Both the position numbers and the translations under genes were made by a program. Below, one piece after another: positions 10,177 to 35,716 of a stretch of 64,000 bases of DNA. Location: positions 1,740 to 65,739 of the forward strand of contig CAVPKK010000009.1 in assembly GCA_963705705.1 (NCBI GenBank), in the 5' to 3' direction. This DNA is from an uncultured bacterium. Its GTDB lineage: Bacteria; Babelota; Babeliae; Babelales; JABCYS01. The notes beneath the pieces are model-generated. The model did not search any database and was not told where the DNA came from. It saw only the letters and a program-made list of their open reading frames with translations. Position 1 is the stretch's first letter. Each line of letters begins with the position of its first letter.

Positions 10177-11169
10177 ATGAAATTGCTAGTTATATTTCTT
10201 TCTATCATCAGCTCGATAAGCATCTTAGCAACTAGCGCAACAGCCGAAGATGAAAAGAGCCAAAATTCTGCTATTGCCCGTCCAATTTATGATTCTCGGA
10301 TAGATCATAAGGCTTTTACAGATCCGCAATATTCATTTATAGATTTTCCCGGCCGCGTACCCGGCCGAATTCGAGAGTTATTGCTTCGGTTTACTGGCAA
10401 GCATAAATCTCCCGAATTAACGAACAGTATTTTATTGTATGGACATACAGGCAATGGCATGGCCAGATTGGCAGAGGCTTTTGCGGGCGAAGCCCAAGCG
10501 GCATATTTACACATTCCTACTTCGCGATTTGAAAGCTCTTGGGACGTTGATCGTACCTTTAATAGCTTGCTAGCATACTCCCATAAGTTCAATAAAAAGG
10601 TAGTACTCTGTTTAAGATATCTTGATGCTGCTGGCACAGAGTGTTCCCGATATCCTGCTTGGCATGACGCCCAGCAAGCATTAATTACTAGGCTTATCGA
10701 ATTAAAAAACAACAAATCAATTTTTACCATTGCAACTAGCCATAAGCCGCAAATGTTAATTCCTGCATTTCGAGACTGTTCGATTTTGGCGGAAAACATT
10801 GAACTGCCTTTTCCAAATTTTGAAAATCGTAAAGATATAATTGAGTATTACTTACATACCCGACCACTATCAATCTCGCAACAACAACTAGCAACAGAAA
10901 TCGCGCTTGCCGCCCAAAAAACAAAAGGACTAGCTAGGTGCGATCTTAGGTCGATGGTAATGATGGAAGTTACAAGATCTTCTGACTTTCGGAATAAAAA
11001 TGACGGCCCACCAACAATAACGTCATCAGATATTGAAAATGGGGTCAAGAAAATAGTTGAAGATCCGATCCGAACATATTTCATCGAAAAAAACAAAAAC
11101 GAGGAAAGAAAAAATGATGCTGAAGGTAAAGTAGTACCTCTTAAGATTCATATGGAGCCAGAAGATTAG
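10177..11169 (+). CDS. signal-peptide protein with a degenerate AAA+ module
   Basis: Signal peptide 'MKLLVIFLSIISSISILATSATA'. The AAA-like core 'ILLYGHTGNGMARLAEAFAGEAQAAYLHIP' has a degenerate Walker A and 'VVLCLRYLDAAG' in place of Walker B. It is clearly related to module 2 of 14672..18316 ('LAEAFAGSAFAKFVCVS'). Confidence 0.6.
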   Translation: MKLLVIFLSIISSISILATSATAEDEKSQNSAIARPIYDSRIDHKAFTDPQYSFIDFPGRVPGRIRELLLRFTGKHKSPELTNSILLYGHTGNGMARLAEAFAGEAQAAYLHIPTSRFESSWDVDRTFNSLLAYSHKFNKKVVLCLRYLDAAGTECSRYPAWHDAQQALITRLIELKNNKSIFTIATSHKPQMLIPAFRDCSILAENIELPFPNFENRKDIIEYYLHTRPLSISQQQLATEIALAAQKTKGLARCDLRSMVMMEVTRSSDFRNKNDGPPTITSSDIENGVKKIVEDPIRTYFIEKNKNEERKNDAEGKVVPLKIHMEPED

Positions 11170-11364: not shown

Positions 11365-12192
11365 TTAACATTGCCCTGTCGAACGGTCGAAGCCGGTTGT
11401 TTCTACGAGCCAAAGCGATTTACCATTCTGGCAAAATTTAAGCACTATTAAGAAATAAAAAGCCAAATCTAGTGCTAATTCACCGTCATAATTTTTCATT
11501 TGGTATGGGCGCTGCGGGATAAAAAAGAAACAGCTGCTGGATGCACCCGAAATTAACTCAAGACGAGCCGGTCCTTTTTGCAAGAGCATTGTTTTGTCAT
11601 TATTAATAAACTCAACGAATGCCTCTTCATTCAAACGCCTGTCACCAGATTCATCAAAGATTTCAAAGCCGGCTTGTTTTATATTATGAAAGAACAAATT
11701 TGTTTGTTCCTTCATATTTTCATCACGCCAAACCCATGCAACATTGATTGACGGGCCTTCCACTGCGGGTGTGAGTGTGGGTTCTAGATCATTATCTTCT
11801 ATTCTGATTGTGCTTATTTTAAATACGTCCAATAATGGCAAAAGCTCATCAAAATACTTAGAAGCTTTCCCCCATCGATAGCTATAATAGGACTTTGATA
11901 ACTTAATCAGACCTGATTTCTCGTCAGGGCGAATGTACATGACTAAAGATATATTCTGAACTAGATTCCTTACAGTAAGCGGCTCTGAGTGAACTTGCGT
12001 AAGACCGAATTTATGACCCCTAATTATAAAATCCGCAGCTTCTTCCACTGAAAAATGTTGTTTTTCAATAGGTGAAGCGTAATAAATTTCGCAAGAAAAC
12101 ACATAGCCCAGATCAGCAATATGCTTAAGCAAGCGCAATATATTTAACTTGTTGAAACTCAAATCAAGGGTCAATGAAAAATTAACCTCCAT
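11365..12192 (-). CDS. hypothetical protein, coupled partner (immunity/antitoxin-like) of the upstream nuclease-like protein
   Basis: Its start overlaps the stop of 12182..14662 by 11 nt (ATGGAGGTTAA). It is a paralog of 26574..27350, sharing blocks 'NILRLLKHIADLGYVF'/'NIIKILEHGAKLGYSF', 'KQAGFEIFDESG'/'SAAGFKILDKPHG' and 'DLAFYF'/'DTAFYL'. Confidence 0.55.
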   Translation of the reverse strand: MEVNFSLTLDLSFNKLNILRLLKHIADLGYVFSCEIYYASPIEKQHFSVEEAADFIIRGHKFGLTQVHSEPLTVRNLVQNISLVMYIRPDEKSGLIKLSKSYYSYRWGKASKYFDELLPLLDVFKISTIRIEDNDLEPTLTPAVEGPSINVAWVWRDENMKEQTNLFFHNIKQAGFEIFDESGDRRLNEEAFVEFINNDKTMLLQKGPARLELISGASSSCFFFIPQRPYQMKNYDGELALDLAFYFLIVLKFCQNGKSLWLVETTGFDRSTGQC

Positions 12193-14662
12193 TAATTAAC
12201 CTCCATGCTAATTCATCTAAACTTAAAAATTGAATACCCTCTCCACGAGCCTCGTTTAGCAATGAAATAACTTCCTCTCTCAATGCAGCATCAGGGATAT
12301 GGTCCAAAGTCAATTTTTCCGGCGTTACAACAGCGAAAGATCGCCGCCCTTCAAATAAACGTTTTATTGATTCGCTCCGGGTAATGAATTGGTCTAGCTC
12401 GGTCTTTATTTTTTCAGGCGATAACATTTTCCAATCCCATGATTTACATTCAATCGCATAGCGTCTTCCATGCTTATCCGTAGCCAAAATATCAATTTCG
12501 AACTCTTGCTCACCAATTCTAGATATTCGATTCATTCCTTCAATTTCTCCCTCGGCCCGCTTTATAGTGCAGCCGACCTCTAACTCATAAATCTTGCCCT
12601 GGTTAGAATTCAACTTCCCATTCTTTCTAGTTTTTATATTATCCAAGGCGGCTGCAACTGTCTCATCTAATCCTGGAAATGGCCTTTCTGAAAGTTCGGT
12701 CTTTGCATTCTCTATCACTTCACGTGCAATTTCTTCTGTGCGATACCGTGCGCGAAAAACAAGTTCGCCGTTAGATGGCTCTTTCGGACCGGGTGGTTTT
12801 AAGCTAGTTCCCGGGCCGCTGGGCGATGGAGGTGGCGGCTTTTGTAACTGATATTCGCCGCATTCATTCAGATCCATTTCAAAAATATTATCTTCTAGGC
12901 ATGTATCTGGTATTGGATTAGTTTCAACCTCTGGCTTCGGCTCGACGTCATCAACATCAGATTCAGCTGATCCATTACTCGGCTTAGTCGCCGGCTCATC
13001 TGTTTCAGGTTTAATCCCCGGTTGAATTTCCGGACCAGCAGGTCCTGGATTTTCAGTAGGCGCTGGATCTTGTTTGGCAACATTAATATCACGCTGCTCA
13101 AGCCCTGTACGCTGCATTAAACCTTTATAGAAACCATTCTTATCAAGGAAAATTTCTTTAGTTGATCTGCCTGCGACTATTGGATGCTTATTAATAAAAT
13201 CATTGACCATCTCCTGCAATTTTATTTCTGGCAATGGTTTCTGATGCCGATCTGACGGACGTTGAGCCTCTACAAGTTCATACAAGAAATCATTTAGTTC
13301 AACGGCTGCAGCAGAATCATGTCGAATACCAAGTTTTTCCTCGAGAAGAAATTTTCTCTGGCCTCGAAGAATAACACTCATGGGCAATTTTATACTGTTA
13401 TCCGACCATTGATGACCTTCATACGGCGATTCTTCTATCCAGGGATCACGTGAGCACAGTGTCTCAGCAACTTCGTGCAATGCCGCGCGGAGACCATTAT
13501 GAGACCAATTCCATCCATCATTTTTATCAAAGCTGATTGCGCGAAGATCATTATTATCGTATGCATTGATAAGCATACGAACTGCTCCATTAAACTTATT
13601 ATTGCGAATAGCCTCTGAAGAAATCCTTCTTTTGGTATGAACGCAACCTTTTGGCCCTTTGCCATCACCTGTATAGCTGATTCCAAGCTGTTCTATTTTC
13701 TCTCGCCACCAATCCGCCCTGATTTCAGAATTCACCCGTGTAAGAAATTTATTTATATCGCGGGTTAATTTTGCAAGAATTGCCGATGCACATCCATTTG
13801 TTTTTATTAATTTTCCATTTTGGTGCCATCTAAAATCTTTAAGCGAGCCGTCCTCATTGAAGAAATGGGGAAGAAGCCACGCCTGAGTTTCAGCAAATTC
13901 TGCTGGCCATTCACTAACCGATTGCGGAATTAATAACTCAGCCAGCTCTAGTCGAGCGCGCAATGTATCTAACGAGGAAGCGCCCTTCCTATTAGGATTT
14001 GCCAGTTGCTGCATTACCGATCCAGGCTGTGCTGGCCCGGGCATAGCACCAAAAAGAGCCAGCGTGCTAAGATCAACAAAACGCATCATTTTAGCGATAT
14101 TGTATTGGCGAATTCTCGCTTCATATGCATCGGCCGGCGTTCCGATCTCAACCTTCGCTGATCCTCTTGGAGCTGGCATTGCGGGCTTTACTGCCTTGGT
14201 CTTGCCTGGTATAGCATGCTGTCGCCGTGAATTATTATTGGATACTGGAGCGAGGGTAGCCTCGGGTATTTGAGTAGGCGTCGGTTGCTTTGCAATTTCA
14301 CCTGAAGAATCGGCTACTGAGGAGGATGCCTCAGTGTATTTTTGCGCCCCTGGGACATCCTCGCGAACACCCTTCATGCGGAAATATTCTTCAGCAGATA
14401 CTGCCTCACAACGAATGCCGTTGACTGGTTTCGTTTGTTCAGCTATCCAATTCAGAGCAACAGCTAAACCAGGAACTGCAGCAACAAGCTTGTCGACTTG
14501 AACGGCGACCTGCGGATTATTTGCAAGGACTGTGCCTACCGTTGTTCCTACCTGATTTATAAGTTGGGCAACGGCAAACCCCAGAGATTTACGACAAGGT
14601 ACAAATATTAGCGCTAAAGCTACCAAACAAATCAGTAACCGTCGTCTGAGGCGAACTTGCAT
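12182..14662 (-). CDS. large membrane-anchored protein with a C-terminal PD-(D/E)xK (restriction-endonuclease-fold) nuclease-like domain
   Basis: N-terminal hydrophobic anchor 'LLICLVALALIFVPC', a long unique middle, a Pro/Glu-rich linker, then 'GKIYELEVG...EQEFEIDILATDKHGRRYAIECKSWDW' (E...D...ExK order). Confidence 0.6.
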   Translation of the reverse strand: MQVRLRRRLLICLVALALIFVPCRKSLGFAVAQLINQVGTTVGTVLANNPQVAVQVDKLVAAVPGLAVALNWIAEQTKPVNGIRCEAVSAEEYFRMKGVREDVPGAQKYTEASSSVADSSGEIAKQPTPTQIPEATLAPVSNNNSRRQHAIPGKTKAVKPAMPAPRGSAKVEIGTPADAYEARIRQYNIAKMMRFVDLSTLALFGAMPGPAQPGSVMQQLANPNRKGASSLDTLRARLELAELLIPQSVSEWPAEFAETQAWLLPHFFNEDGSLKDFRWHQNGKLIKTNGCASAILAKLTRDINKFLTRVNSEIRADWWREKIEQLGISYTGDGKGPKGCVHTKRRISSEAIRNNKFNGAVRMLINAYDNNDLRAISFDKNDGWNWSHNGLRAALHEVAETLCSRDPWIEESPYEGHQWSDNSIKLPMSVILRGQRKFLLEEKLGIRHDSAAAVELNDFLYELVEAQRPSDRHQKPLPEIKLQEMVNDFINKHPIVAGRSTKEIFLDKNGFYKGLMQRTGLEQRDINVAKQDPAPTENPGPAGPEIQPGIKPETDEPATKPSNGSAESDVDDVEPKPEVETNPIPDTCLEDNIFEMDLNECGEYQLQKPPPPSPSGPGTSLKPPGPKEPSNGELVFRARYRTEEIAREVIENAKTELSERPFPGLDETVAAALDNIKTRKNGKLNSNQGKIYELEVGCTIKRAEGEIEGMNRISRIGEQEFEIDILATDKHGRRYAIECKSWDWKMLSPEKIKTELDQFITRSESIKRLFEGRRSFAVVTPEKLTLDHIPDAALREEVISLLNEARGEGIQFLSLDELAWRLINGG

Positions 14663-14671
14663 GGTTTGCCT

Positions 14672-17600
14672 TTATTGTTTCTTTTCTTCTTCGCGTAGTC
14701 GTTCACGCTGTTTTTTTATGAATTCTTTTTGTTCCCTATCGGTTGCAACATCCTCGTCCATGGTTTCTATAACATTAAATGCACCAAACACCCATGCTGC
14801 TGGATTAGAGGATGATGCCGCCGAAGTAGCTGCAGATCGCAGATTCATCATGCGATCTTTTCGCTGTTGGTATTGCTGCTGTTCAAGTAGATCGAGTTGA
14901 AATTCTCGGTTTTTTATGGCCTCTCGTTCCTGAGAAGATTTACCCCATTTTATGCGATAGTCCACTAGTTTCCTAATAATCAGCACAGCATTTTGCAGAT
15001 CTTGCAATGTTACTTTTAGTCCTGTTTTTACTTGTTCCAAATATGTCTGTGAAACGGGAGTCCCGGCCAATACTGCATAACTTCTATCTATTGCAATATC
15101 CTCGGCTGTTACAACTAAATTTTCAAGGTCACGGCAGGCGAAGCCCCGTGTATCCTTCAAAACTTGATCGAGGGTTTCCGCCCTATGTTTCTCTTCCACA
15201 GCGCTATCAAAAATAGTGTGTTTGGTTTGAGCAAGATAATGCTCAAGAATCATCCGCCTGTTATATAGATCTGGTACATCCATCATAATATGAGCATCGA
15301 ATCGAGCATGAACTGCTTCATCCAGATCTTCCCGTCTATTGGTCGCTGCAATATAAAATATTAAATTGCAGTATTCTTTGCGCAATGAATTAAATTGACT
15401 AAGCAAAGCGTCATTCATTCTTGTTTCTTCTTTGTGAGAGTCGTTATTCCGTTTACCGCCAAGTCCTTCAAACTCATCAAAGAAAATAACAACTTTTTGC
15501 CCAGTAACATTCACAAATGTTTTAATGCGCTCGAAGAATTCATTTATTTTTCTTGGGCCCTCTCCAGCCCATTTATCTGCAAAGGCACCGCCATGACACA
15601 TGATAAATTTTGCGCCAGCTTGATGCGCGAAGATTTCCGCAATTGTTGTTTTCCCCGTGCCGGGAGGTCCGTATAATAAAATGCCCTTTTTCCGTTTGTT
15701 TCCAAGATCCCTAATTCCTGTTCCGAATTCGCGGCATAGACGTGGGATATCGGATGCTATGTCGCCTACAAATATTTTTGCTTCTGGAGCCATGATGGTA
15801 ATACCGTTATCTCGTAATTTATTTATTTCGCGATCATCTCGTTCACGGCACCAATCAGAAACAACCGTGGAACAGTGACGAAACACATCTAAGCGAGGCT
15901 CGCGCATAAGACCATCACGCACTTCATGGATCATATCTCTCATAGCACGACAATTAAAATTTTTGGTTGCTTTTACCAACATCATTATCTGATCTTCACG
16001 CAAATTAAAGCCAGTGGTTTCATGCTTCAGGATAGATTGTCTCGCTTGATCATTAGGAAATGTAATTTCAACCTGCTTAACAAATTTTCCTTGCTGACCT
16101 AACTCAAACTTAGCCGACAGACTATTGCAGATACCTATAACCGTTATAAATTTATTTTTGGTGTTGTGCGTTTCTGCTAAAATAAATTGTGCAGCTTGGG
16201 CGCGCAGTGGATCAAAATTATGTTGATCATTTTGGATCAGCTTCTCAATCCAATCAATTATGAGAACCGAAGGCCGATTGATCGATCGCAATGCAGAAAA
16301 TATTTTTTCAACTTGCTCCGGCCGCGTAATATGGCGAGCGTCAATGAAGACCATTTCGGCACCGACTTCTTGAGCAACACAGCGCGCAATATGCCCTTTT
16401 TCATCTGAATCACCGTAGAATATTGCATGGGCCCAGAGGCGATCTGCCTGTCTAAGTCTATTTAGATAATCCGTAATTTGGCCAGGTATGACAGGCGCCG
16501 CTCTACCTACTTGTTGATTTTCACCATTTGGATACACACCAAATGCTTCATATAAATTTAATGATGGATCGGGATTAATGAGCTGAGGAATCATCTGCTT
16601 GAGCCGTTCGCGATATTGAGCATGAACATCATTAAAACCTTGCTCTACATGTGTCTGCTCCAATCTTACTGCGCGGCCGCGTGCTTCATGAGCTTTTTCA
16701 GTCACAATCGCCTTGAGCTCGGCTATATTAAAACCTTCCGCTCTTTGCGCTAGATGTTCGATGAGTTGATCAAGGTTTTGAATATTGTGCTGTTGTTGTC
16801 GCAAATAATAAGTAAGAATTGCCCGACGCATTTCCAAACTTGGCAAATCCAAACGAATCTGAGCACCAAACCGCCCTGCGCGCATCAAGTTTTTATCAAG
16901 TTCGTCCTCATGATTCGTTGCACCAATCACAATTACTGATCTGCCAAATGGGGTTCTTGCAAGTTCCGATAGCTCAACCTTTAATTGGTTAATTGTATTA
17001 TCACCTTGATGATGGCCGCCGCGGCGCGCAAGCGAATCAAATTCATCGAAAAAGATAACAATACGTTCCTCTGGATTTTGTTCCAAATAGGTTTTGACTT
17101 GCCTAAAAATTGAACTTATACGTTCGGCGCCGCTTCCGATGAGGGCTCCGTTAACCATGCTTGCAGATACGCATACAAATTTTGCGAAAGCAGAACCTGC
17201 AAATGCCTCAGCCAAGAACGATTTGCCTGTACCACCAGGACCATATAACAACATGCCGGGCGACACTTCATGAGCTCGCCCATCTTGATTTCCTTGTTGC
17301 ATAAAACGATCCAATGTTGCCCGCGCTCTTTCGGGCACTTCCCCAGCAAAATCATCCAATGTGCACAGTGGGGCTTGGAACTTAATAGAATTTTCACGTT
17401 CTTGCTCTCTGAAAACGCGCTCAAGATCTTCATTTCTTCTTTGGCGTAGTTCATTTAATTGTTGGATCAGGCGGTGATGTTCAAAATTTGCTCGTGGCAT
17501 ATGGTCAATAGCACTGCATACATCCTTGGCGCTTAAGCAATGGGATCGAGTGATAAGTAGCTGTAATATTGCATCATCAACATTAACTTGCTGTTTCTCG

Positions 17601-18316
17601 AGATATGAACGAATAATTGCTGCACGAGCCTCAGCATTTGGCAATTCAAATTTTATATTTGCAGATTCAAGTTCGCCATTTTCTAGGAATGATCGCGAAA
17701 TAAGGCTAAGGTCTCGGATTGTACCTATTACAAAAATATTGCGATTAAGCGGATCGACAAGCTGTTCCATGAATGTACCAGCGGTATTCAAATATTCAGG
17801 ATGTTCGCCTTCTGGCTTTCGACCGAGCAGCATTTCAATTTGATCAACAATTAATAGCGTGGGCTTGTTTGATGCACGCAATTCTTTGAAAAGTTCTCTA
17901 ATTTTGTCAGCGCCTACACCAATATGCTTATCATTAAATGCAGCACCTATAATGCGCTTTTTATGGAAGCCAAGTTCGTCGGCAATAATAGAAGCAGAAA
18001 AACTTTTGCCCGTGCCAGAAGGTCCGTGAAAAAATACCAACCTTGGCGTATTGGCATGTCTCTGGTCCAAATGACGATATTGAGCTGCAAGATCATGGGC
18101 CTGCTGTGGCAAACCATGAACTTCGTCTAATCTAACTTTTTTGGCAACTGACTCATCGTCAAATTGTTCTTTTTCAAGGGTTCCGGTCAACCGTTGGAAG
18201 GAATAATAGAGAAGTGCTCTATTTCGCTCATTGTAGGATGTCCATTGAGTGAAGAGATCATTGGCTTGGACAAAGCCAGGGATTAAGAGAAGCAGTAGAA
18301 GCAGTAAGCGACACAT
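14672..18316 (-). CDS. signal-peptide protein with four tandem AAA+ ATPase modules
   Basis: 'MCRLLLLLLLLIPGFVQA' signal peptide. Walker A 'GPSGTGKS' (~18000-18040), 'GPGGTGKS' (~17220-17255), degenerate 'GDSDEKGH', and 'GPPGTGKT' (~15650-15690). Walker B 'LLIVDQIE', 'VIFFDEFDSL', 'VLIIDWIE', 'VIFFDEFEGL'. Sensor/Arg-finger 'GATN...MRAGRF' and 'AATN...HARFD'. Confidence 0.8.
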   Translation of the reverse strand: MCRLLLLLLLLIPGFVQANDLFTQWTSYNERNRALLYYSFQRLTGTLEKEQFDDESVAKKVRLDEVHGLPQQAHDLAAQYRHLDQRHANTPRLVFFHGPSGTGKSFSASIIADELGFHKKRIIGAAFNDKHIGVGADKIRELFKELRASNKPTLLIVDQIEMLLGRKPEGEHPEYLNTAGTFMEQLVDPLNRNIFVIGTIRDLSLISRSFLENGELESANIKFELPNAEARAAIIRSYLEKQQVNVDDAILQLLITRSHCLSAKDVCSAIDHMPRANFEHHRLIQQLNELRQRRNEDLERVFREQERENSIKFQAPLCTLDDFAGEVPERARATLDRFMQQGNQDGRAHEVSPGMLLYGPGGTGKSFLAEAFAGSAFAKFVCVSASMVNGALIGSGAERISSIFRQVKTYLEQNPEERIVIFFDEFDSLARRGGHHQGDNTINQLKVELSELARTPFGRSVIVIGATNHEDELDKNLMRAGRFGAQIRLDLPSLEMRRAILTYYLRQQQHNIQNLDQLIEHLAQRAEGFNIAELKAIVTEKAHEARGRAVRLEQTHVEQGFNDVHAQYRERLKQMIPQLINPDPSLNLYEAFGVYPNGENQQVGRAAPVIPGQITDYLNRLRQADRLWAHAIFYGDSDEKGHIARCVAQEVGAEMVFIDARHITRPEQVEKIFSALRSINRPSVLIIDWIEKLIQNDQHNFDPLRAQAAQFILAETHNTKNKFITVIGICNSLSAKFELGQQGKFVKQVEITFPNDQARQSILKHETTGFNLREDQIMMLVKATKNFNCRAMRDMIHEVRDGLMREPRLDVFRHCSTVVSDWCRERDDREINKLRDNGITIMAPEAKIFVGDIASDIPRLCREFGTGIRDLGNKRKKGILLYGPPGTGKTTIAEIFAHQAGAKFIMCHGGAFADKWAGEGPRKINEFFERIKTFVNVTGQKVVIFFDEFEGLGGKRNNDSHKEETRMNDALLSQFNSLRKEYCNLIFYIAATNRREDLDEAVHARFDAHIMMDVPDLYNRRMILEHYLAQTKHTIFDSAVEEKHRAETLDQVLKDTRGFACRDLENLVVTAEDIAIDRSYAVLAGTPVSQTYLEQVKTGLKVTLQDLQNAVLIIRKLVDYRIKWGKSSQEREAIKNREFQLDLLEQQQYQQRKDRMMNLRSAATSAASSSNPAAWVFGAFNVIETMDEDVATDREQKEFIKKQRERLREEEKKQ

Positions 18317-21935: not shown

Positions 21936-22784
21936 TTAGCAAGGGAAGTTTGGACCGCAACATGCTACTGGTTCTCCACCAATGATTGATAGCATACAGA
22001 TGATTTGCTTCAATAGGGTATTGTTCTCGTTAACAACATTAAAGACGAGGTCAACATCGCCATCGATATCGCCAAGTTGGCAAGTTACTTCTCTAAGCAC
22101 TGTGAATGTGCCGTTGAACTCTTCAACCAATTCAACCTTAATATCTCTTAGAGCTGTGAACACGCCTGATAGATCACATGCTGAACCTTCACAAGGACAA
22201 GCTAATAGATTCGCAAGCAGAGTGAATGTACCATTGAAACCAGCATCGATATCTGCATCAATGTCGATTACACGGCTTATAATGAAATCAAGATCAGATT
22301 CAATTTCTTCAAGTACTGTGAATGTACCGTTGAAACCAGCAACTAACTCAACTTTAATATCTACAAGGGCAGTAAATACACCTGAAAGATCGCAACCTGC
22401 AGCTTCGCAAGGGCAAGCTAATAGATTAGCAAGTAGAGTGAATGTACCATTGAAACCAGCATCGATATCTTCATCAAGATCGAGTACGCGGCTTATGATG
22501 AAATCAACGTCTTCATCGATTTCGTTCACTACGGTTAGGATTTCGCTAAGTACCGTGAATGTACCATTGAAATCAGCGATGAGTTCGCTGCAGCATTCCA
22601 TGCCTGGGCGGATACAGCTAGCTCTGTCATCTACGTCAGCCCGAACAACCGGCGCTGGCATAGACTTAGCTACTGTTCTACCCATAGGGGCAGCTGATTT
22701 GGTTAGTAGCGGGGCAGGAACAACCATGCCGAGGGCTACTAAAAATGATAGTTTGTGTAGGCTCGAATGAAGGTTTGACTTCAT
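21936..22784 (-). CDS. secreted Cys-containing 'FNGTF'-repeat protein (small paralog of 35717..40213)
   Basis: Signal peptide, five 'FNGTFT(V/L)L' units, and a twice-repeated block '...DIDAGFNGTFTLLANLLACPCE..CDLSGVFTAL.DIKVELV..FNGTFTVL'. It shares 'CDLSGVFT.LVDIK.ELV' with the giant protein. Confidence 0.7.
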   Translation of the reverse strand: MKSNLHSSLHKLSFLVALGMVVPAPLLTKSAAPMGRTVAKSMPAPVVRADVDDRASCIRPGMECCSELIADFNGTFTVLSEILTVVNEIDEDVDFIISRVLDLDEDIDAGFNGTFTLLANLLACPCEAAGCDLSGVFTALVDIKVELVAGFNGTFTVLEEIESDLDFIISRVIDIDADIDAGFNGTFTLLANLLACPCEGSACDLSGVFTALRDIKVELVEEFNGTFTVLREVTCQLGDIDGDVDLVFNVVNENNTLLKQIICMLSIIGGEPVACCGPNFPC

Positions 22785-23201: not shown

Positions 23202-23906
23202 ATGATCCCTACAACAAAAGCCACAATATTATTCCTTACATTCTCTTTTTTCTCTGCACTCGCAGTTCCATTCACGCCCACTGATAAAGAGACATGGAGC
23301 GAGCATGAACGTGAGCTCAGCTCAATTATCCAGGATCAGCATTTAGAGCCTACCAATCGACTCCTCAACAAGGCACTTGCCTATGCCAAGGAGGCGATGG
23401 CCAATGATGGTTTGGCGCCGGAAATCCGCCGCTTTGCCTTTGATTTAAGTATCATCGCCACCAATGCAACTGCATATAAAAAATATAGAGATACAATTAA
23501 AGCATTCGAACAATTTCCCGAGCTAACTCTCCCGGCAGTAGCTTCCTTGCAGCAAAAAATATTCCGCGGTGATGTGATCATGATCGCCCGCGCCATTATC
23601 TGCAAAATGCTCAATGTGCCCTTATCCCTCGAGCGCCTAACCGGCCCCGGCCTGTGGGTAATTGAGCAAGAAAATAACATGTTTAAGGATCATCATTTTG
23701 CACAACGCCAGCCGATCATCGATGCGCTTACCGATACCGAATGCGCCGAGATTATTAAACTTGCCAGCCAAGCGCATGAACTTAATAAACGCGGCAACAT
23801 TCAAAACGCCATGGTTCAGCTCATGCAGATATTCAACCACCTCTTCAACATGCCACCAACTGCTATGGAAGTATCCAAGCAATATCGATCATTATCGCGG
23901 GTGTAG
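23202..23906 (+). CDS. secreted hypothetical protein, paralog of 27383..28117
   Basis: Signal peptide 'ILFLTFSFFSALA'. Shared blocks 'FAFDLSIIATNA'/'FAYDLSVLAKNK' and 'GPGLWVIEQE'/'GPGLWMIEFE'. Confidence 0.55.
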   Translation: MIPTTKATILFLTFSFFSALAVPFTPTDKETWSEHERELSSIIQDQHLEPTNRLLNKALAYAKEAMANDGLAPEIRRFAFDLSIIATNATAYKKYRDTIKAFEQFPELTLPAVASLQQKIFRGDVIMIARAIICKMLNVPLSLERLTGPGLWVIEQENNMFKDHHFAQRQPIIDALTDTECAEIIKLASQAHELNKRGNIQNAMVQLMQIFNHLFNMPPTAMEVSKQYRSLSRV

Positions 23907-23975: not shown

Positions 23976-26573
23976 ATGCAAAACTCTTCAAAATTCGCAC
24001 GCATCAGAAAAAAATTAACTCCATTTTTCCTTGCCATTCTGATTGGCGTCCAAACACTTCTTTCCGCTATCGCTGCCCCCGCAGCCGCTATTTTTGGATT
24101 AGGCACAGCCATTGGCTTGGGTACCGTGGCCACGGTTGCCGCTCCGGTTGCACTCACCGTTGGCGTAGCCTACTTTTTTTATACGTTGCAAGGTTCAGGT
24201 TCCAAGACTTTTGCGACCCCCTATGCAGCAAGCAAAGCTGCCCCAACAAACCATACGGCTCAAGCCGCGGAAGCTGCACGAAATATTCATCAGTGGTTTG
24301 CCGGCGGCATGAATCCGGCCACGTCCCCGTTATCGCCAACCGAAAAATCAATCTTAGACAAAGTTTTAGATGCAAATGCTGGAAAAAAAGTAGATATTCA
24401 CTCAGCATTCCAAACTCAGATCAAAAAGGAAGTTAATGAGCGAATAAAAAATTTAAAAAGTGCCACGACTCGTAACTGCTTTCGTGACCAGCTTGAATTT
24501 CTTCAAACATTAATTGAAACCCTCGATTTGGCAGCAGCTCAGCCAGATAAAGCAATATTTACTGTATTCCATCATCTCGTTGGAGCCGATGGCAACTTTA
24601 TTCCCAATAAGAGCAAATGCCTTGATTCAATTCTTTATTTTGCATTGCAGTATTGCCCACTAAAGCCCGGCTTCTCTTTAGATGGTTTATTCCTAAATTC
24701 AGGTCTTTCGTATTCCAAAGATTGCGTTGATAATAAAAATACCAATTTAGGCGGGCAAAAGATTTTTGCTCCATGTGAACCCTGCATACAGAAATTGGCA
24801 GAGGCTATGCTGGTGCCTAGGGAGCAAATCGAACCGCTTGTCACTGACTTACGAAAAATTATCTATGCCCATACTGCTCAAGATCCTCGACAGCTGGAGC
24901 TTTCATCAAATGACCTTTTTCTCGCCAATCCATTTTGCACACACATTTTTGATATGTTCCTGCGAATGGGCTATTGCGGAAAAGACCCATTGCTCAAGCA
25001 AAAGGATCCCGATTTATCGCAAGTCCTCAAACGAGGGCAACAGCGAAAAGAAATTGATGTGCAATTAGGGCTTACTTCATCCCAATCCGCGGATCTGGCT
25101 ACATTAAATTATCGGCTCATATCAAAAGCAGGCGATCCAAAAGCGCAGGCCGATATATTACTTGCATATGTAAGCGGCTCAAAAGCAAAACCTGTAGACG
25201 GAATTGCGCCTCGCGAAATTTATTTTAATAAAGATGGCCGTTGTAAATTGGTTGAATTGGCTGCCATGGAAAACTTTTTACTTGAGGTATATCAAGGCAG
25301 ATCTAACAAACTAAACGCCCTTGCGTATTCATTTGCTAAAGATGCGTTAGTAAATGAAGAATTGTGCCAGCCTCTTATGACTGCAGCCCGCCAATTATCA
25401 AAATTCGCTTCTTCTGATTCAGTTCAGGACTTCCCAGAAACTGCCGCAGCCATTGGCAGCATCCAGGAATTTTCTCTGCCCGCTTCAGCCAACGATCAGC
25501 AAAAATCAATATATGAAGATACGGTGGCAATCATTAATGATATCGTCAATCTTTGTTGCATTAACCCGGGCACTGATTTACCACCAATTGGCGGTTCCAG
25601 CCCGATTGGAGAAACTGCGGATCCAAAAGGAACTTGCGGCTCCAGCAAGCTTGATCAACATCTAGCAAATTTGATCAAAAACCTTGCCTGCGGCCACGAT
25701 CTTAATAAAACTGGAAACATTGATTCGGCGTTAGACATTGTGAGAACCTGCGGCAAAGGATTAGGCGCCATCGAAGAGACGCCTAAATGGCGCTGCAATT
25801 GGAGCAAAGAACGAGGTAGCCGAATTGCCCCACCGAAGATAACCTGCAACGACGCCCAACAAATTGGGGAGCGGCTCAAGACCTCAGACCTGACTCTAGC
25901 CGCTATTGCTCGGGAGACGTTAGAACTAAAACCTGGCATCGGGCGCCTCAGTGAAAAATCATTTAATATTCCCGATCGACGGTATACGATCCCTGAAGCA
26001 GAAAAAATTATCGAGGATGCTAAGAATGTCTTTGGAAATAAAGGAATACCCGGTTTTGAAGAATTAATTCGAAACGCAGAGGCCCAACTCAAAAAAGCGA
26101 AAGAAGATATTGCCAAGGGTAATTCAGGGACGAACTTGGGTCATATTACCGAATTGGAAACGGCCCTATTCCTCAACACAAAAGGAATTAACATCGCGGC
26201 AATTAATTTGAAAATAAAAGAAGGCGGGAAATTGATAGCCGAATTTGACATGATTATTGAAATCGAAGGGAAATTATTTGCTGTAGAATGTAAATCTTTT
26301 GATTGGACGGTGCATTCCGAAGAAGGCTTACGAAAGGTCGTGACGCAAATTGAAAGACATATTAAAGCGATTAAGGATTATAAAGGTCTCTTAGACTCCA
26401 CTCTAAAATTGGCAGGCAGGACTCTCGGTTATCTTGTAATTACGCCAAATGCATTTCCCTCAGCTGAGCGGATTGCAACTCTTCCAACAAAAGAACAACT
26501 TTGGGCGATAATTTCTCATGCTAAAGAAAATTGTTATGAAATTTTGGGTCTTAGCAATTGGGGAGAAAAATAA
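23976..26573 (+). CDS. large membrane-anchored protein with a C-terminal PD-(D/E)xK nuclease-like domain (copy 2)
   Basis: A ~55-aa Gly/Ala/Val-rich hydrophobic region 'FFLAILIGVQTLLSAIAAPAAAIFGLGTAIGLGTVATVAAPVALTVGVAYFFY'. C-terminus 'GHITELETALFL...IAEFDMIIEIEGKLFAVECKSFDW'. I preferred the ATG at 23976; the longest ORF starts at 23958. Confidence 0.6.
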   Translation: MQNSSKFARIRKKLTPFFLAILIGVQTLLSAIAAPAAAIFGLGTAIGLGTVATVAAPVALTVGVAYFFYTLQGSGSKTFATPYAASKAAPTNHTAQAAEAARNIHQWFAGGMNPATSPLSPTEKSILDKVLDANAGKKVDIHSAFQTQIKKEVNERIKNLKSATTRNCFRDQLEFLQTLIETLDLAAAQPDKAIFTVFHHLVGADGNFIPNKSKCLDSILYFALQYCPLKPGFSLDGLFLNSGLSYSKDCVDNKNTNLGGQKIFAPCEPCIQKLAEAMLVPREQIEPLVTDLRKIIYAHTAQDPRQLELSSNDLFLANPFCTHIFDMFLRMGYCGKDPLLKQKDPDLSQVLKRGQQRKEIDVQLGLTSSQSADLATLNYRLISKAGDPKAQADILLAYVSGSKAKPVDGIAPREIYFNKDGRCKLVELAAMENFLLEVYQGRSNKLNALAYSFAKDALVNEELCQPLMTAARQLSKFASSDSVQDFPETAAAIGSIQEFSLPASANDQQKSIYEDTVAIINDIVNLCCINPGTDLPPIGGSSPIGETADPKGTCGSSKLDQHLANLIKNLACGHDLNKTGNIDSALDIVRTCGKGLGAIEETPKWRCNWSKERGSRIAPPKITCNDAQQIGERLKTSDLTLAAIARETLELKPGIGRLSEKSFNIPDRRYTIPEAEKIIEDAKNVFGNKGIPGFEELIRNAEAQLKKAKEDIAKGNSGTNLGHITELETALFLNTKGINIAAINLKIKEGGKLIAEFDMIIEIEGKLFAVECKSFDWTVHSEEGLRKVVTQIERHIKAIKDYKGLLDSTLKLAGRTLGYLVITPNAFPSAERIATLPTKEQLWAIISHAKENCYEILGLSNWGEK

Positions 26574-27350
26574 ATGGATTTTTATTATTTCTTTTTAACA
26601 GATTGCCGCTACACAGATAAAAATATCATTAAGATATTGGAACATGGCGCAAAATTAGGCTACTCATTTCGAATCCCTACTTATATTAGCGGTAATTCGG
26701 GTAACCCAGAATCTTTGGATATTGAAACGGCTACTAAATTTTTAATAAAAGAACACCCACTGTCGCGTTGGTATAGCGGGATTGAAGCCCACAAAAACAA
26801 TGGAAATACCTTAGAATTTGATGCTATCGATAAAAATGATTTTCTCCAAATAGATGGCGGCGGATATTTTGAGACCTACTCAGATATAGTTGGCTACATG
26901 CCGAATATGATTGAAATTCTACGACCCTTCAAAATTAACAACTTCCAAATGCAGGAAGAATATTTCATTGACACAAAAATTCCCACACCTGGATATCACG
27001 GCCCAATCATTTATTGCAATCGCTTTGGCATTTGGCCAGTATTAAAACAAAATATTTCTGCCGCCGGCTTTAAAATTTTAGATAAACCCCATGGCTCTGA
27101 GATTGATGTGGCTCTCTCCGATAAAGGAAAAGAGTACCGCTATGAATTAACGGCATTCCTACAAAAAGACGAAATCATTATCAAAGCCCAGATAAGCGGA
27201 TCTGATTTATGCTTAATGCCGTTCCCACCCTATGTTCAACATAAATATGAAAGCGGAGCTGATATTGATACCGCCTTTTATCTAGATTTTCTATTTAAAC
27301 TAGCCAAGGGGGCCGAGGCGCTTGATTTCATAGAAGCAAAGAATTTCTAA
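26574..27350 (+). CDS. hypothetical protein, coupled partner (immunity/antitoxin-like), paralog of 11365..12192
   Basis: Its ATG immediately follows the TAA of 23976..26573. Paralogy blocks are listed under 11365..12192. Confidence 0.55.
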   Translation: MDFYYFFLTDCRYTDKNIIKILEHGAKLGYSFRIPTYISGNSGNPESLDIETATKFLIKEHPLSRWYSGIEAHKNNGNTLEFDAIDKNDFLQIDGGGYFETYSDIVGYMPNMIEILRPFKINNFQMQEEYFIDTKIPTPGYHGPIIYCNRFGIWPVLKQNISAAGFKILDKPHGSEIDVALSDKGKEYRYELTAFLQKDEIIIKAQISGSDLCLMPFPPYVQHKYESGADIDTAFYLDFLFKLAKGAEALDFIEAKNF

Positions 27351-27382: not shown

Positions 27383-28117
27383 ATGTTCAATACATCTACC
27401 ATCAAACTAATTTTTCTAATACTCGCATCAGTACAATTTAGTAATGCATCCAATCTCCCTGGAAATACGGATGCACAGACTCAGTATATTTTTGAATTAT
27501 GCTCGATTGTGGGAGATCAAATGCAAGATCAGAACAATCTATTGCTAGCAAAGGCAGCAGGTTACGCAGCTGAATCAACCAACGAAGAAAATCTTGATAT
27601 ATTTCTTTGCCACTTTGCATATGATCTGAGTGTGTTGGCAAAAAACAAAGAAGTTTGTAAACGGTATCCGAATACTGCAAAAGCATATGAGCAACTTACA
27701 ACACTTTCACGGCCTGCTACTGTATCAATTGTTCAGGGCATGCTTCAAAAAGATATCATAACATTGTTACGCGTGATTATTTGTGAAACTCTCACAATTC
27801 CTGTATCAGCAGATCGCATATTCGGTCCAGGCCTTTGGATGATTGAATTTGAAAAGTCTGTAAATATGCAAGAACATAGTTATAGAAATGAACCCATTAC
27901 TCTTCCCAAATTAACGGATAATGATTATGCAGGAATTATTAAGACTGCTAGCAAGGCATATGAGTTAAGCAAGTCTGGCGATGCCACAGCTGCAATGGCT
28001 GAATTAAAGGAACCATATATCAGATTATTCAATGCAGAGCCAAGCTCATTAAAGCTGGCCCACATCTTTGAGGAAGCAGGAAATCCTTCATATGTAATGC
28101 AGCCACGGGGCAAATAA
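27383..28117 (+). CDS. secreted hypothetical protein, paralog of 23202..23906
   Basis: Signal peptide 'IKLIFLILASVQFSNA'. It shares blocks with 23202..23906. Confidence 0.55.
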   Translation: MFNTSTIKLIFLILASVQFSNASNLPGNTDAQTQYIFELCSIVGDQMQDQNNLLLAKAAGYAAESTNEENLDIFLCHFAYDLSVLAKNKEVCKRYPNTAKAYEQLTTLSRPATVSIVQGMLQKDIITLLRVIICETLTIPVSADRIFGPGLWMIEFEKSVNMQEHSYRNEPITLPKLTDNDYAGIIKTASKAYELSKSGDATAAMAELKEPYIRLFNAEPSSLKLAHIFEEAGNPSYVMQPRGK

Positions 28118-28442: not shown

Positions 28443-30793
28443 TTAAACCAAATCAGCTTCATCCGGCGGTGGAGGTGGCGGGGTTTCGCTACGCCTACTT
28501 GGTGGCGTATCATTTATGCCAGGTTGGCTTTTAGAGGCCTCTGAATCTCGCGGAGGCGTGTTCCGGTCTGTAGTTGCCGCAGATGGGCGTCTTTCCGGTG
28601 ATTGTGGCGCCTCGAGGCTAAAATTCATGAATTTTGGCGTTCTAGGCGATGCAGCAATGGGTGACAGGAATTGCGATTCAGGATCTCCAATTGATAAGCG
28701 AATCCTTGATTGTGGTGATCGGGAACCCAATTCTATACTATCTTGAATCGATTGCTGTCTTGGAGTAGGCGCATCCAAATAAAGGCTATTGAAATTAGCC
28801 GATTCGCCCAGGCTTATCCGCGCAGGATTAATATTCATGTCGGATTGACAGCTATTAAGAATCTCGTCGTATACCTTTTTGGGAATGTTAAAAACTATAG
28901 CATCGGTGACTACTTGCAGATCTTCCCGTATCTTTTCATTTAAGGTAATACGCTGTTTGATAAAGATGTTTTTAAGTTGGCGTTTTGTTAAGCCAACTAA
29001 GTTCTTCTGCTTTAATGTAGTTGCAAAGGCATCTGCGATGCGATCTGTTTGATCATTATCGCATTCACCGATTGAAAACCTCACACGTTTCTCACTAAAG
29101 TGCGCAGCAAGAGATTTAAGTAGCTCATCAACCATTTCACAGAAATCTCGGCCTTCGCCCGCGGAGAAATCCCAGCAGTTTAGATCCAGTTTCTTGCGCA
29201 GAAGATCATGAAACTTCTTAGTTTCACGGTACTTGCTTCCTTTATGCCGTATCCATGCATAACGTGCTGCACCGGTTGCCACGGCACTACCAGCGCCATA
29301 AAGAATCTTGGTTATTACATCAGAAAAAAGGCTTCCGCCTGAACTCATATTAATGGGATCAGGTGGGTTGGAAGAAGTAGATCCCGTGCTAGAAGCTGTA
29401 GAATTATTTCCGTTGCTGCCGGTAGATCCGGTTAGTGTTGGCGCAGGTGGAGTCTCCAGTGACTGCAGGTATGCCGCAGTAAGCGCAATACCATAAATTT
29501 GATAATGGCCATTCTGGTTACCTTGCCATGCAACGAAGACGTCGCCATTGGGTAAGGCTGTGGCAACGGCATCTTGCTGATTGCCACCCTGAATCTGATT
29601 AATCATAAACGGCCCATAAATAATATTGCCGTTGCTATCTATTATCGTTCCATAGATATCATAATTAGTGCTGGTTGAAGACGCTTGGGCTGAAAAAACA
29701 ATCAACGCATTGTTACCGTTATTAAATATAGCCACATTATTGCCGTGGACTGCCGTAAATGCTTGATATAGATTCCCCTGTAAATTAAGTGAGCCCTTTA
29801 ATAAGCTGCCATTTGCGCCATTAAACAGGGCACCTGTCATACCAGATAAAGTGCTTGGCTTCACTGACCATACTGAGAGAACCTTATCATTGGCAAAGGC
29901 CCCTAATCCAATGCCGCCAGATATACCATATTGCCCACCGCCATCATTATATTGGGAGGTAAAACGCTGACCAAGCGTTTTATTAAATGAAGATAATCTT
30001 AAATAACCATTATGGTCAGCAAAAAAGATGTTCCCATTAGGGTCTGAGGCTGCAATAAAATAGGCCCGTCCACTAATACTATCCAGTTTGTGCGATACGG
30101 TAGTTTGAGGCTGCCCCCTTGATTAATTTCTTGACCAAAAAATTGGTTAGATGAGCCAATATTTTCAAAAGACAAAAGGACATTACCATTTACTAATGGC
30201 ACTGCATTAATCGAAGGATTGTTATAACTACCTTGACCCCCAGCAGCAATCTGCAAATCCGATGATTCGCCAATTCCATTTCTATTAAAAAGGCGAGCTT
30301 TAAAATTATTATTGCTATCTACCCATGCCACAGCTGCAGAGCTATCATTAAATGAAGAGATGGTGGGCCAAAGCTGGGAAGTTAAATTAGATACCGGGAT
30401 TTCACTCGTTAATAATGATCCATCTTCATTTATTGCACGAAATGACGAGATACTGCCCTGTTGCCAAACCGCGTATAGATGCCCATCTGGCCATCCGACA
30501 ATGCCTGGGTTGGTCAGATCACTAGCGCTAGGATCATTGAGCATAAATTCGGTGCCAACCTGAGATTCAATTTTTGGAACATGGGTTGCCAAAAGGCCTA
30601 AAATCAAGGTTTTTTTTGAGGTATTGGCAAACCATCTGACGCTATTGCGCCAGGCATTGCATACCTTTTTTATTGTGGAAGGATCTGAATGATCTTGCGA
30701 TGGGAAGTTACCCGCTTGAAGAGCAGGCATTAAACAAAAGCCGATAGCCAAAAATAAGGTTAATTTGCGTGTCATGATGGTCGCCAAATGCAT
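28443..30793 (-). CDS. single-pass membrane protein (signal peptide, repeat-rich ectodomain, S/T linker, TM, cytoplasmic domain with a poly-Pro tail), split by a frameshift in a G5 run (ORFs 29999..30793 and 28443..29864)
   Basis: Both pieces carry the same type of strand-like repeats ('HLYAVWQQG', 'SAAVAWVDSNNNFKARLF', 'AYFIAASDPNGNIFFAD', 'GDVFVAWQGNQNGHYQIYG'). The downstream frame is open from just after the G5 run. A TM segment 'ILYGAGSAVATGAARYAWI' is present, and the protein ends 'ETPPPPPPDEADLV'. Confidence 0.6.
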
Positions 30794-30936: not shown

Positions 30937-31836
30937 TTACGCCGCTGGGCGTATAGAAATATTATCAATCACAGGATCAATTACTAACCCTGCCGCCTGC
31001 TGGGTCCCATTTACAACTGGAGTATATCCAAGGACTAAGAGGAAAGAGAGATTATAATTATTATCAGCTTCGAGGGGAACAAATCCAAGTGCTGCGATAC
31101 CATTATTTCCGAATGCAATATTGCCCCGGAGTTGGCTATCGGTATTGGCAACCGAGAAGCCCCAGTTACCATTTTCTTCCGCACTTGAATTCTTAATAGT
31201 TACGACACTAGTACCCTCGACGTTGAACCCTACTCCACCATTGCTATTTGCCACGCAATTACTCACGAAAGAAGAGTAGCTGCTCATGAAATCAAATCCG
31301 ACGTTCGCGTTAAAGCTACATTCACAATTGGTTATCCATCCTTTATCGCCGCTGTTAAATATGATCCCATTCCCCGATGTAAGGACCTGACATCCATCAA
31401 TCCGTACAGCTGTGTTATTAGATTGCACATTGATCCCGATCCCCGGGGGGTTAAGGAAGTTGACTAGATTTAGGCCACTTAACAAGATGTTATTGATTGC
31501 TATAGGTTCTGTTACAATGCCGGTTAACGCCCCAGTAAGGCCGCCACCATCAAGCACCCCATTCTTTATAACAGTATTGCTACTGGTCACAACAACTAAG
31601 AAAGTTAACGCGGATCCCGCAGTAACGGTCTTTCCATTCAAATCAAATATCACATTAGTGCCAGTAATGTTAAGAGCTCCGGTTACTGTCGCATCATCAG
31701 TCAAAATATACTTGCCCGGCTGAGAAAAGGTTGCGCCCGAGGCAATTTCTTGCGGGCTCACGTAAAAAAGAGGTGTGGCCGTGGCGCTGCCGATACCTAG
31801 CAGGCAGCCCAGTGATAGTAGTTTTTTTAAATTCAT
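30937..31836 (-). CDS. secreted right-handed parallel beta-helix (PbH1-repeat) protein, paralog 1
   Basis: Signal peptide 'MNLKKLLSLGCLLGIGSATA'. 'NITGTNVIFDLNGKTVTA', then ~22-aa beta-helix coils ('CVANSNGGVGFNVEGTSVVTIKNSSAEENGNWGFSV'). It ends 'IDNISIRPAA'. Confidence 0.7.
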   Translation of the reverse strand: MNLKKLLSLGCLLGIGSATATPLFYVSPQEIASGATFSQPGKYILTDDATVTGALNITGTNVIFDLNGKTVTAGSALTFLVVVTSSNTVIKNGVLDGGGLTGALTGIVTEPIAINNILLSGLNLVNFLNPPGIGINVQSNNTAVRIDGCQVLTSGNGIIFNSGDKGWITNCECSFNANVGFDFMSSYSSFVSNCVANSNGGVGFNVEGTSVVTIKNSSAEENGNWGFSVANTDSQLRGNIAFGNNGIAALGFVPLEADNNYNLSFLLVLGYTPVVNGTQQAAGLVIDPVIDNISIRPAA

Positions 31837-31868
31837 TTTTAATCCTCTCTAATCATTACAATACATAA

Positions 31869-32759
31869 TTATGTTATAGAAATATTATTGAAGCCGAGAT
31901 TAAGTGTCTCATTTTCCGGAATCACTGATGTATTAGATACAGCGATAAAGCCAATTGATCCAGAATAATTTTTATCTGCACCAGTACCACCATTCCCATA
32001 AGCAATATTGCCACGAAACTGAGAAGTAGTATTAGCGGCGGATAACTGGAAGCCCCAAGAGGAATTGTCTTCCGCACTGCAGTTTTTAACAGATACGATG
32101 CTGTTGAATAAGATATTAAACCCTATTGCGATATTTCCATTTGCCACGCAATTGCTCACAAAACAGCGCCCAGTACTGCCTCCTGCCCTTCCAAAATCAA
32201 ACCCGTCGGCCATATTGAAGCTACATTCGGTATTGGTTACCCAGCAACTGTCGGTATTGCCAACGACTAAACCCGAAAATGAATTAATGACCTCGCATGC
32301 ATCAATCCGCACGCCTGTGCTACCACTACCACTTACAAAGATCCCAATGCTTTTGTTGTTAGTCGAGACGTTAACAACAGTCACTCCACTTACCGAAGCA
32401 TTTATAATACCGCCAGCTGTTTCGACCCCAAACATTGCATATGATGTAGGATTACCGCCATCAAGCAGGCCATTCTTGACAGCAGTGTTATTACCATTCA
32501 AAAGAACTAACGCGGTGGCAGGTGTGAAAGTTGAATCTGCAGTAAGTGTCTTTCCATTAAGATCAAAAATTACATCCGCAGAAAGAGAAATACTGCTCGT
32601 TACTATTGCATCATCAGTCAAAACATAGGTGCCTGGGTTCGAGAATGTATAGCCGCCCGAAATCTGACTTGGATTTACATAGAATACCTTGGGGGAAGTA
32701 GCCAGGGCGATGGTGCTCGCACTCAAGGCAAAAAATTGAACTATTCTTTTAATTTGCAT
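31869..32759 (-). CDS. secreted parallel beta-helix protein, paralog 2
   Basis: Start moved to ATG 32759 ('MQIKRIVQFFALSASTIALA', AGGAG upstream). Same coil pattern. It ends 'GFNNISIT'. Confidence 0.7.
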   Translation of the reverse strand: MQIKRIVQFFALSASTIALATSPKVFYVNPSQISGGYTFSNPGTYVLTDDAIVTSSISLSADVIFDLNGKTLTADSTFTPATALVLLNGNNTAVKNGLLDGGNPTSYAMFGVETAGGIINASVSGVTVVNVSTNNKSIGIFVSGSGSTGVRIDACEVINSFSGLVVGNTDSCWVTNTECSFNMADGFDFGRAGGSTGRCFVSNCVANGNIAIGFNILFNSIVSVKNCSAEDNSSWGFQLSAANTTSQFRGNIAYGNGGTGADKNYSGSIGFIAVSNTSVIPENETLNLGFNNISIT

Positions 32760-32842
32760 TATCACTCCTAGGATATTTAATTTCTCAGTTAGACCTAACT
32801 TAGTTTGTGTTCGTCCACGCTTTGGCCCGAATCGTATAATCA

Positions 32843-33691: not shown

Positions 33692-33738
33692 ATTACTCCT
33701 TGGATAGTTAAATATCTGGATGCAGGTTATTGGATCGC

Positions 33739-34779: not shown

Positions 34780-34794
34780 TATCACTCCTTATAG

Positions 34795-35697: not shown

Positions 35698-35716
35698 CGT
35701 TATTCCTTACGGACAG

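Follow-up and report, generated by a model that had tools for sequence, protein, structure and literature searches.

Barnase with barstar and the NucA-NuiA pair of Anabaena are signal-peptide nucleases encoded together with a small acidic cytoplasmic inhibitor, which protects the producer before export. The restriction-endonuclease (REase) fold is also found in polymorphic toxin systems, for which Zhang et al. 2012 (PMC3482391) defined ten REase-fold toxin families (Tox-REase-1 to -10) with their motifs and immunity families. Among type VI effectors, the PoNe/PoNi and TseV/TsiV pairs combine a C-terminal PD-(D/E)xK DNase on a modular effector with a cognate immunity protein encoded downstream (PMC6688995, PMC9635880). 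Here, a gene pair of comparable design is described from a 64,000-nucleotide (nt) stretch of contig CAVPKK010000009.1 (assembly GCA_963705705.1, positions 1,740 to 65,739), which belongs to an uncultured bacterium of the Babelales (Babelota) and is referred to as the window. The pair consists of a large open reading frame (ORF) of 826 amino acids (aa) at 12182..14662 and a 275-aa partner gene at 11365..12192, both on the minus strand. A second, diverged copy is encoded on the plus strand.

The pair is read as an exported nuclease toxin that is neutralised by a translationally coupled immunity protein, with a probability of about 0.65. The 826-aa protein would be an exported toxin, either carrying a Sec signal or anchored N-terminally, and its last ~150-190 residues would form a catalytically competent PD-(D/E)xK nuclease. 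The product of the 275-aa gene would be an acidic cytoplasmic immunity protein that binds the nuclease module, blocks its activity within the producer up to the time of export and/or shields sibling cells. An internal Shine-Dalgarno sequence and an 11-nt gene overlap would prevent the nuclease from being produced on its own, in the absence of the inhibitor. We infer an export route and toxicity towards a target that may be rival bacteria, a eukaryotic host or prey.

The C-terminal module of copy 1 (aa 639-826; 12185..12748, minus strand) very probably has a restriction-endonuclease fold with a conserved active site. The AlphaFold2 model of this module, built from a 12-sequence alignment, has a predicted local distance difference test (pLDDT) score of 89.4 and a predicted template modelling (pTM) score of 0.87. 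It consists of two leading helices followed by an alpha-beta-beta-beta-alpha-beta core (helix 51-64, strands 68-78, 81-90 and 96-101, helix 111-131 and strand 138-142 in the numbering of the module), with E693 on helix 1, D724 on strand 2, and E738 and K740 on strand 3. The top Foldseek matches in the PDB are all PD-(D/E)xK nucleases, led by Card1 (E 9e-5, probability 1.0) and including XisH, Argonaute-associated Cas4, NucS/EndoMS, BstEII, EcoO109I, AdnAB and the nuclease domain of Avs4. Among PDB sequences, the Card1 nuclease domain was also matched by a profile made from both window copies (E 0.004), with D724 and E738-x-K740 aligned to the D and the ECK of Card1. PDB entry 6xl1 is the Card1 D294N mutant, which is altered at the very D that aligns with D724. 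Pfam matches of the module stayed below threshold and all concern PD-(D/E)xK families, namely NERD (21.9 bits, cutoff 22.1), Mrr_cat_2, DUF4143 and DUF1853. The nuclease fold that the preliminary description of this DNA had proposed for the C-terminus, from the order of its acidic residues, is thus borne out by the predicted REase core and its structural neighbours.

Card1/Can2 (PDB 6wxw, 6xl1) is the best match of the module in both sequence profile and structure, and its D and E-C-K align residue for residue. The biology of Card1 differs, however: it is a cytoplasmic, CARF-fused nuclease activated by cyclic oligoadenylate, whereas the large proteins described here have no CARF domain, are of an exported type and have a separate partner as the candidate control.

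Five residues are invariant in an alignment of 16 homologous domains, whose identity to copy 1 is otherwise only 19-28%. All are encoded on the minus strand within 12443..12598: G689 (12596..12598), E693 (12584..12586), D724 (12491..12493), E738 (12449..12451) and K740 (12443..12445). Their counterparts in copy 2 are G722, E726, D758, E771 and K773 (numbering of the 865-aa protein). C739 and W744 are nearly invariant, and the family motif reads G..YE[LI]E ... E[FI]DI ... IECKxxxW. The E/D/E-x-K pattern first seen in the two window copies is therefore a property of the family as a whole. Because the catalytic residues are invariant across such a divergent family, the constellation appears to be under selection, and the enzyme is predicted to be very probably active. 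When genome contigs were scanned with patterns from the two-copy alignment (ECKSWD motif), which missed the ortholog of copy 2 in locus L003, the sole gene retrieved encodes an Hjc-like Holliday-junction resolvase of 128 aa and comes from a metagenome-assembled genome (MAG) of the Micrarchaeota (locus L002, 9932-10318). This gene confirms the nuclease affinity of the ECKSWD motif and is otherwise unrelated to the nuclease/partner system.

To date, the family has been found in metagenomes and MAGs only, and none of its members carries a functional name. An exhaustive HMMER search with the two-copy profile among 1.84 billion representative proteins returned 13 proteins at E <= 0.001, both window proteins included. 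One of these, P0005 (760 aa, locus L003), is a full-length ortholog of the copy-2 large protein, with 34% identity over the whole length. The other matches form a looser set, in which the same domain is located at the C-terminal end of proteins of 150-1135 aa, the remainder of which is mostly unrelated. Five further loci (L008 to L012) were recovered by a metagenome scan with the ECK motif derived from a 7-sequence alignment; they are referred to below as the motif-only loci. Searches of a word-indexed database of 5.8 billion proteins with the whole large proteins and the partners returned the window proteins alone, the search being too insensitive for these families; the 12-sequence domain alignment gave four matches there and likewise missed known members. 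No relatives were found in viral contigs, and searches of Pfam, NCBIfam, PADLOC and PDB sequences gave no match above threshold for either the nuclease or the partner family.

The polymorphic Tox-REase systems share with this locus a C-terminal REase module with an E/D/ExK site, variable exported proteins and an immunity gene immediately downstream (Zhang et al. 2012, PMC3482391). Among the motifs tabulated there, that of Tox-REase-7 is closest to GxxxE ... D ... ExK, with E, D and ExK being too generic to decide the assignment. In contrast to this overall likeness, none of the 16 domains scores above threshold with the Pfam models of Tox-REase-2, -3, -5, -7 and -9; Tox-REase-3 alone appears, in 3 of 16 domains and with a best E of 0.0014. 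The locus also differs in that the partner has no match to a Pfam immunity family, RHS, FilH, PAAR and LXG domains are lacking, and the clade of the window copies is linked to AAA ATPase genes. The pair is therefore filed as one that, judged by these five Pfam models, would work like a polymorphic REase toxin/immunity pair but outside the named Tox-REase and Imm families. The type VI pairs PoNe/PoNi and TseV/TsiV belong to other families (PoNe and VRR-Nuc), and here neither type VI markers or genes nor a match to DUF1911 or another immunity family were found. In barnase-barstar and NucA-NuiA, the folds are unrelated and the nucleases are small single-domain proteins, unlike the tail of an 826-aa protein.

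The two genes of copy 1 are tightly coupled. Both ORFs and the peptide strings quoted in the preliminary description are present in the sequence, as is the stop/start overlap: the large-ORF TAA (12182..12184) and the partner ATG (12190..12192) delimit 11 shared nucleotides, ATGGAGGTTAA. Inside the 826-aa ORF, a GGAGG (12200..12204) precedes the partner ATG by 7 nt, which makes 12182..12204 (minus strand) a putative translational-coupling junction. The junction is spanned by a 12-nt direct repeat, ATGGAGGTTAAT-TA-ATGGAGGTTAAT, at 12181..12206 (minus strand), in which the first copy supplies the GGAGG for the ATG of the second. The pair forms the end of a same-strand cluster of three genes (11365..18316, minus strand), whose first member, a 1214-aa AAA ATPase gene at 14672..18316, ends 9 nt upstream of the 826-aa ORF. 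The preliminary description had correctly seen the tight coupling of two genes but had overlooked this third one. Promoter and terminator scans around the copy-1 operon returned fewer sites than in shuffled sequence.

The second copy comprises a large ORF of 865 aa (23976..26573, plus strand), which ends in the same nuclease module, and a 258-aa partner gene (26574..27350, plus strand), whose ATG abuts the TAA of the large ORF. The large ORF had been listed as 871 aa from 23976; the ORF exists, but two starts were mixed, since 871 aa are obtained from TTG 23958 and 865 aa from ATG 23976. Between the copies, similarity of the large proteins is confined to the last ~190 aa (27% identity, E 3e-13), and the partners are paralogous from end to end (22% identity, E 4e-14), both as previously suggested. 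These similarities are far beyond chance, and the gene pair is therefore taken as real. No further copy of either family was found in the window by BLAST comparison of all its ORFs with one another or by hidden Markov model (HMM) searches with both families, and no tRNA or Rfam features were detected there.

The copy-2 pair is flanked by two paralogous ORFs with signal-peptide-like N-termini, 23202..23906 and 27383..28117 (both plus strand; 36% identity, E 3e-47). Neither has a Pfam or NCBIfam match, and part of the copy-2 large protein, aa 449-592, is similar to the product of the former (E 7e-7). Downstream of the pair, an ORF at 28443..29864 (minus strand) has a proline-rich C-terminal tail (...SETPPPPPP...) similar to that of a gene downstream of the orthologous pair in L003 (3718-5865, minus strand). 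Because such genes lie downstream of both pairs, the copy-2 locus and L003 are considered syntenic. An AAA gene occupies the place of the window's 234-aa ORF in L003.

Conservation of the pair in relatives, which the preliminary description had named as a check, was found throughout: a partner-family gene lies beside the nuclease gene in 12 of 12 loci with downstream sequence, directly downstream in all except L009. The partner in L003 (256 aa) overlaps the copy-2 ortholog by 4 nt and is clearly related to the window partners. More distant are the genes located 0-9 nt downstream of the nuclease ORFs in L005, L006 and L007 (138, 296 and 278 aa, respectively), which are homologous to the window partners according to hhalign (probability 94.8%, E 5e-8, 238 columns). 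The motif-only loci provide an independent test, as the partner HMM was built without them. It scored 76 bits in L012, 45 in L011, 35 in L009, 27.5 in L010 and 15.5 in L008, with the partner directly downstream in L008, L010, L011 and L012. L009 has a partner fragment upstream of the nuclease gene, and its contig stops 113 bases past the nuclease gene. A partner-family gene is also present in L014/L015 (52.6 bits).

The partners are built from two modules. An N-module of ~135 aa is always present, and the C-module is fused to it (window, L003, L006, L007 and L014), absent (L005 and L010) or encoded by a separate next gene, as in L011 (3223-4037) and L012 (5346-6178), where the two modules form consecutive genes. 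An internal duplication of the partner was considered and is unsupported: the comparison of N-half and C-half gave an hhalign probability of 18% and covered only a 22-residue terminal helix. The copy-1 partner is acidic (isoelectric point, pI, 5.4) and has no signal peptide, and the N-modules are acidic in 9 of 10 loci. Distance matrices of the nuclease domains and the partners correlate (r 0.60, Mantel p 0.001), with identities of 15-25% among partners and 21-44% among nuclease domains, so that the partner evolves more rapidly. Among 11 members of the partner family, no credible match to known immunity families (Pfam Imm*, SUKH, CdiI, PoNi/DUF1911) was found, and searches of PDB sequences, NCBIfam and PADLOC gave no match for this family either.

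A genomic context in favour of toxin/immunity is found in a relative, the metagenomic locus L007 (1..4798). There, a pre-toxin segment of 78 aa is common to two neighbouring toxin-like ORFs (40% identity, E 2e-11; VTPEG[IV]xIPV in both), which diverge afterwards. Downstream of the first, which has an unknown C-terminal domain, lies a CdiI_ImmP immunity gene (PF24172, E 2.7e-24). The second carries the nuclease domain and is followed by a partner-family gene and then by an orphan CdiI_ImmP gene. L007 is a textbook polymorphic-toxin cassette array, and because its partner-family gene sits after its toxin as CdiI_ImmP does, the partner holds the position of an immunity gene. Tandem cassettes are also found in L009, where the end of one partner gene is followed by another nuclease-domain ORF. 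CdiA-CT/CdiI cassettes resemble this arrangement in joining a toxin C-terminus to an immunity gene, and the module alternates with CdiI_ImmP genes in L007, but neither CdiA filamentous haemagglutinin repeats nor a VENN motif or a CdiB transporter were detected.

The proteins that carry the module at their extreme C-terminus (186-1135 aa) are otherwise mostly unrelated and in most cases of an exported type. In all-against-all BLAST, similarity is confined to the C-terminal module in most pairs of family proteins, and the N-terminal and middle regions of the two window copies are mutually unrelated. No relatives of the first 638 aa of copy 1 were found in Pfam, NCBIfam or PDB sequences. By inspection, most large proteins of the family start in a signal-peptide-like manner, and the partners have no signal peptide. 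Copy 1 has a hydrophobic segment directly after MQVRLRRR (aa 8-32; 14567..14641, minus strand), located by a Kyte-Doolittle scan and inspection, and a proline-rich low-complexity linker ahead of the nuclease module (aa 530-635, 21% Pro; 12758..13075, minus strand). The protein had been called membrane-anchored; the hydrophobic N-terminus stands, but anchoring is uncertain, as aa 8-32 may be either a signal anchor or equally a cleaved signal peptide with a possible cleavage site between AVA and Q. Copy 2 begins with a bilobed hydrophobic stretch of ~55 residues (Kyte-Doolittle scan). A bilobed hydrophobic domain of 40-60 residues near the N-terminus, reminiscent of chlamydial Inc-type membrane proteins, is present in copy 2 and the L003 ortholog and absent from copy 1.

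AAA ATPases recur beside the pair. The 1214-aa protein encoded upstream of copy 1 (14672..18316, minus strand) contains four AAA modules of the classic clade, which match VCP/CDC48, FtsH and PAN best, and its N-terminus, MCRLLLLLLLLIPGFVQA, is by inspection Sec-signal-peptide-like. The Walker motifs, read by eye (D1 IVDQ, D2 FFDE, D3 GDSDEKGH/IIDW and D4 FFDE), suggest that degenerate and intact AAA modules alternate. Convergent with the copy-1 partner, a single-module AAA ATPase gene of 330 aa (10177..11169, plus strand) has a signal-peptide-like N-terminus, too. The C-terminal tail of the 1214-aa protein is conserved directly upstream of the copy-2 ortholog in L003, so that the order AAA gene, large protein, partner would predate the duplication. 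At L012, an unrelated locus with 32% GC, the nuclease gene is directly preceded by an AAA gene of 554 aa, and two more AAA genes lie just downstream (659-2323, 7430-8374 and 8489-10228), all with signal-peptide-like N-termini. No AAA gene adjoins copy 2 or the nuclease genes of L005, L006, L007 and L010. The link is thus facultative, but three of eight loci is still above expectation for a family of few members per genome, and the 1214-aa protein is a probable third component or co-exported protein. To our knowledge, exported AAA ATPases are unusual. An ATPase that leaves the cytoplasm would have to arrive where ATP is available, a hint that the target may be the inside of a host or prey cell.

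Several other features of the window were recorded. Five right-handed beta-helix paralogs and a 1517-aa protein are encoded at 30937..40270 (minus strand). The 1517-aa protein contains many internal repeats, which are common to a 282-aa ORF at 21936..22784 (minus strand), and one of its segments matches the model of the NleE cysteine-methyltransferase effector (34 bits, cutoff 27). BamA is apparently split at 51654..54705 (minus strand) into an 885-aa ORF with POTRA domains and a 153-aa ORF with the end of the Omp85 barrel, which overlap by 68 nt; this suggests a frameshift or an assembly error.

Some observations weigh against the toxin/immunity reading. No trafficking domains or secretion-system genes were recognised next to the window copies (RHS, FilH, PAAR, LXG, VENN, PT-HINT and others), and the signature of cassette swapping is seen in the distant relatives L007 and L009 but missing from the window copies. 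An acidic to neutral nuclease segment, as in the window clade (pI 5.4-6.5), is unusual in a toxin that binds DNA; in the distant clade, this domain is basic (pI ~9). The AlphaFold model of the partner, made from two sequences, reached a pLDDT of 47, and a Foldseek search with this low-confidence model returned noise (best E 0.24). The two-lobed N-terminus of copy 2 could leave the nuclease on the cytoplasmic side. Finally, the linkage to AAA ATPases is unexplained by a simple toxin/immunity model.

In one alternative, the mechanism is the same but the nuclease would act as an effector against a eukaryotic host or against prey. An intracellular or predatory bacterium would export it along with the AAA ATPases encoded nearby, and the partner would protect the producer before export only, in the manner of barstar with barnase or NuiA with NucA. 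All linked AAA ATPases have signal-peptide-like N-termini, which would be sensible only if the target compartment contains ATP; the window has many orphan paralog families with signal peptides and holds the NleE-like segment; the L003 contig encodes leucine-rich-repeat proteins; and copy 2 and its ortholog have the Inc-like bilobed domain. REase-fold effectors of amoeba symbionts have been described (Zhang et al. 2012, PMC3482391), but according to the same article host-directed REase effectors usually come without immunity genes, whereas a partner is present in every locus here, and L007 places the module among immunity genes of the interbacterial CdiI type. A host- or prey-directed effector is for these reasons rated as unlikely. 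A more specific version, in which the pair and an exported AAA+ unfoldase form a three-component module delivered into an ATP-containing host or prey cell, where the unfoldase might, for instance, pull the toxin free of its inhibitor or remodel proteins of the target, is doubtful.

The remaining explanations place the nuclease or the partner in another role. A membrane-tethered nuclease facing the cytoplasm might act in abortive infection or against phages, with an antitoxin-like partner and the AAA ATPase as sensor or activator. The defence nucleases among the structural neighbours (Card1, Avs4, Hachiman and Argonaute-associated Cas4) would fit this, as would a hairpin anchor in copy 2 that holds the C-terminus in the cytoplasm. 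However, PADLOC-DB yielded no significant component match: the hits of the nuclease to CARF_PDDEXK and PD_DExK are marginal (E 0.0025-0.006), and those of the AAA proteins to the IetA and TRIP13 models reflect generic AAA similarity. Moreover, the AAA proteins seem to be exported, and in most relatives the nuclease protein starts with an ordinary signal peptide and its gene has no AAA gene beside it. Neither relatives in viral contigs nor a mobile defence-island context were seen, and an anti-phage role is rated improbable. Classical toxin-antitoxin (TA) modules were excluded, as the toxin module forms the end of a large exported-type protein; specifically, type II TA systems do not agree with a partner that is encoded downstream and has no DNA-binding domain match, nor with a toxin on an 826-aa protein with an export signal. 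Slightly less probable still than the anti-phage role is a partner that serves as a secretion chaperone or as an accessory or specificity subunit, i.e. an effector/chaperone pair or a two-subunit DNA-processing enzyme. The small (~135 aa), acidic N-module encoded beside its client gene does recall class I type III chaperones. Secretion chaperones, however, bind N-terminal regions, and because the partner follows the C-terminal module whatever the N-terminus, including proteins of 186-294 aa with little beyond the module, such a role is unlikely. Type III genes are also absent from the window, and the partner diverges faster than the nuclease, as immunity proteins do. Among the three options named in the preliminary description, toxin/immunity is thus the favoured one, given the exported multidomain large proteins as opposed to TA and a partner that tracks the C-terminal module as opposed to a chaperone.

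If the toxin/immunity reading is correct, the pair would represent a new REase-fold toxin domain and a new cognate immunity family, both absent from Pfam, NCBIfam, PADLOC and PDB and both so far seen in uncultured organisms only. In metagenome-assembled genomes, such pairs would serve to mark conflict between bacteria or conflict directed at a host, and biotechnology could draw on them for nuclease-inhibitor pairs. The repeated AAA linkage is the one feature that departs from the textbook model and may point to the biology of an intracellular or predatory bacterium; an effector set of a delivered unfoldase and a nuclease, if true, would be without described precedent.

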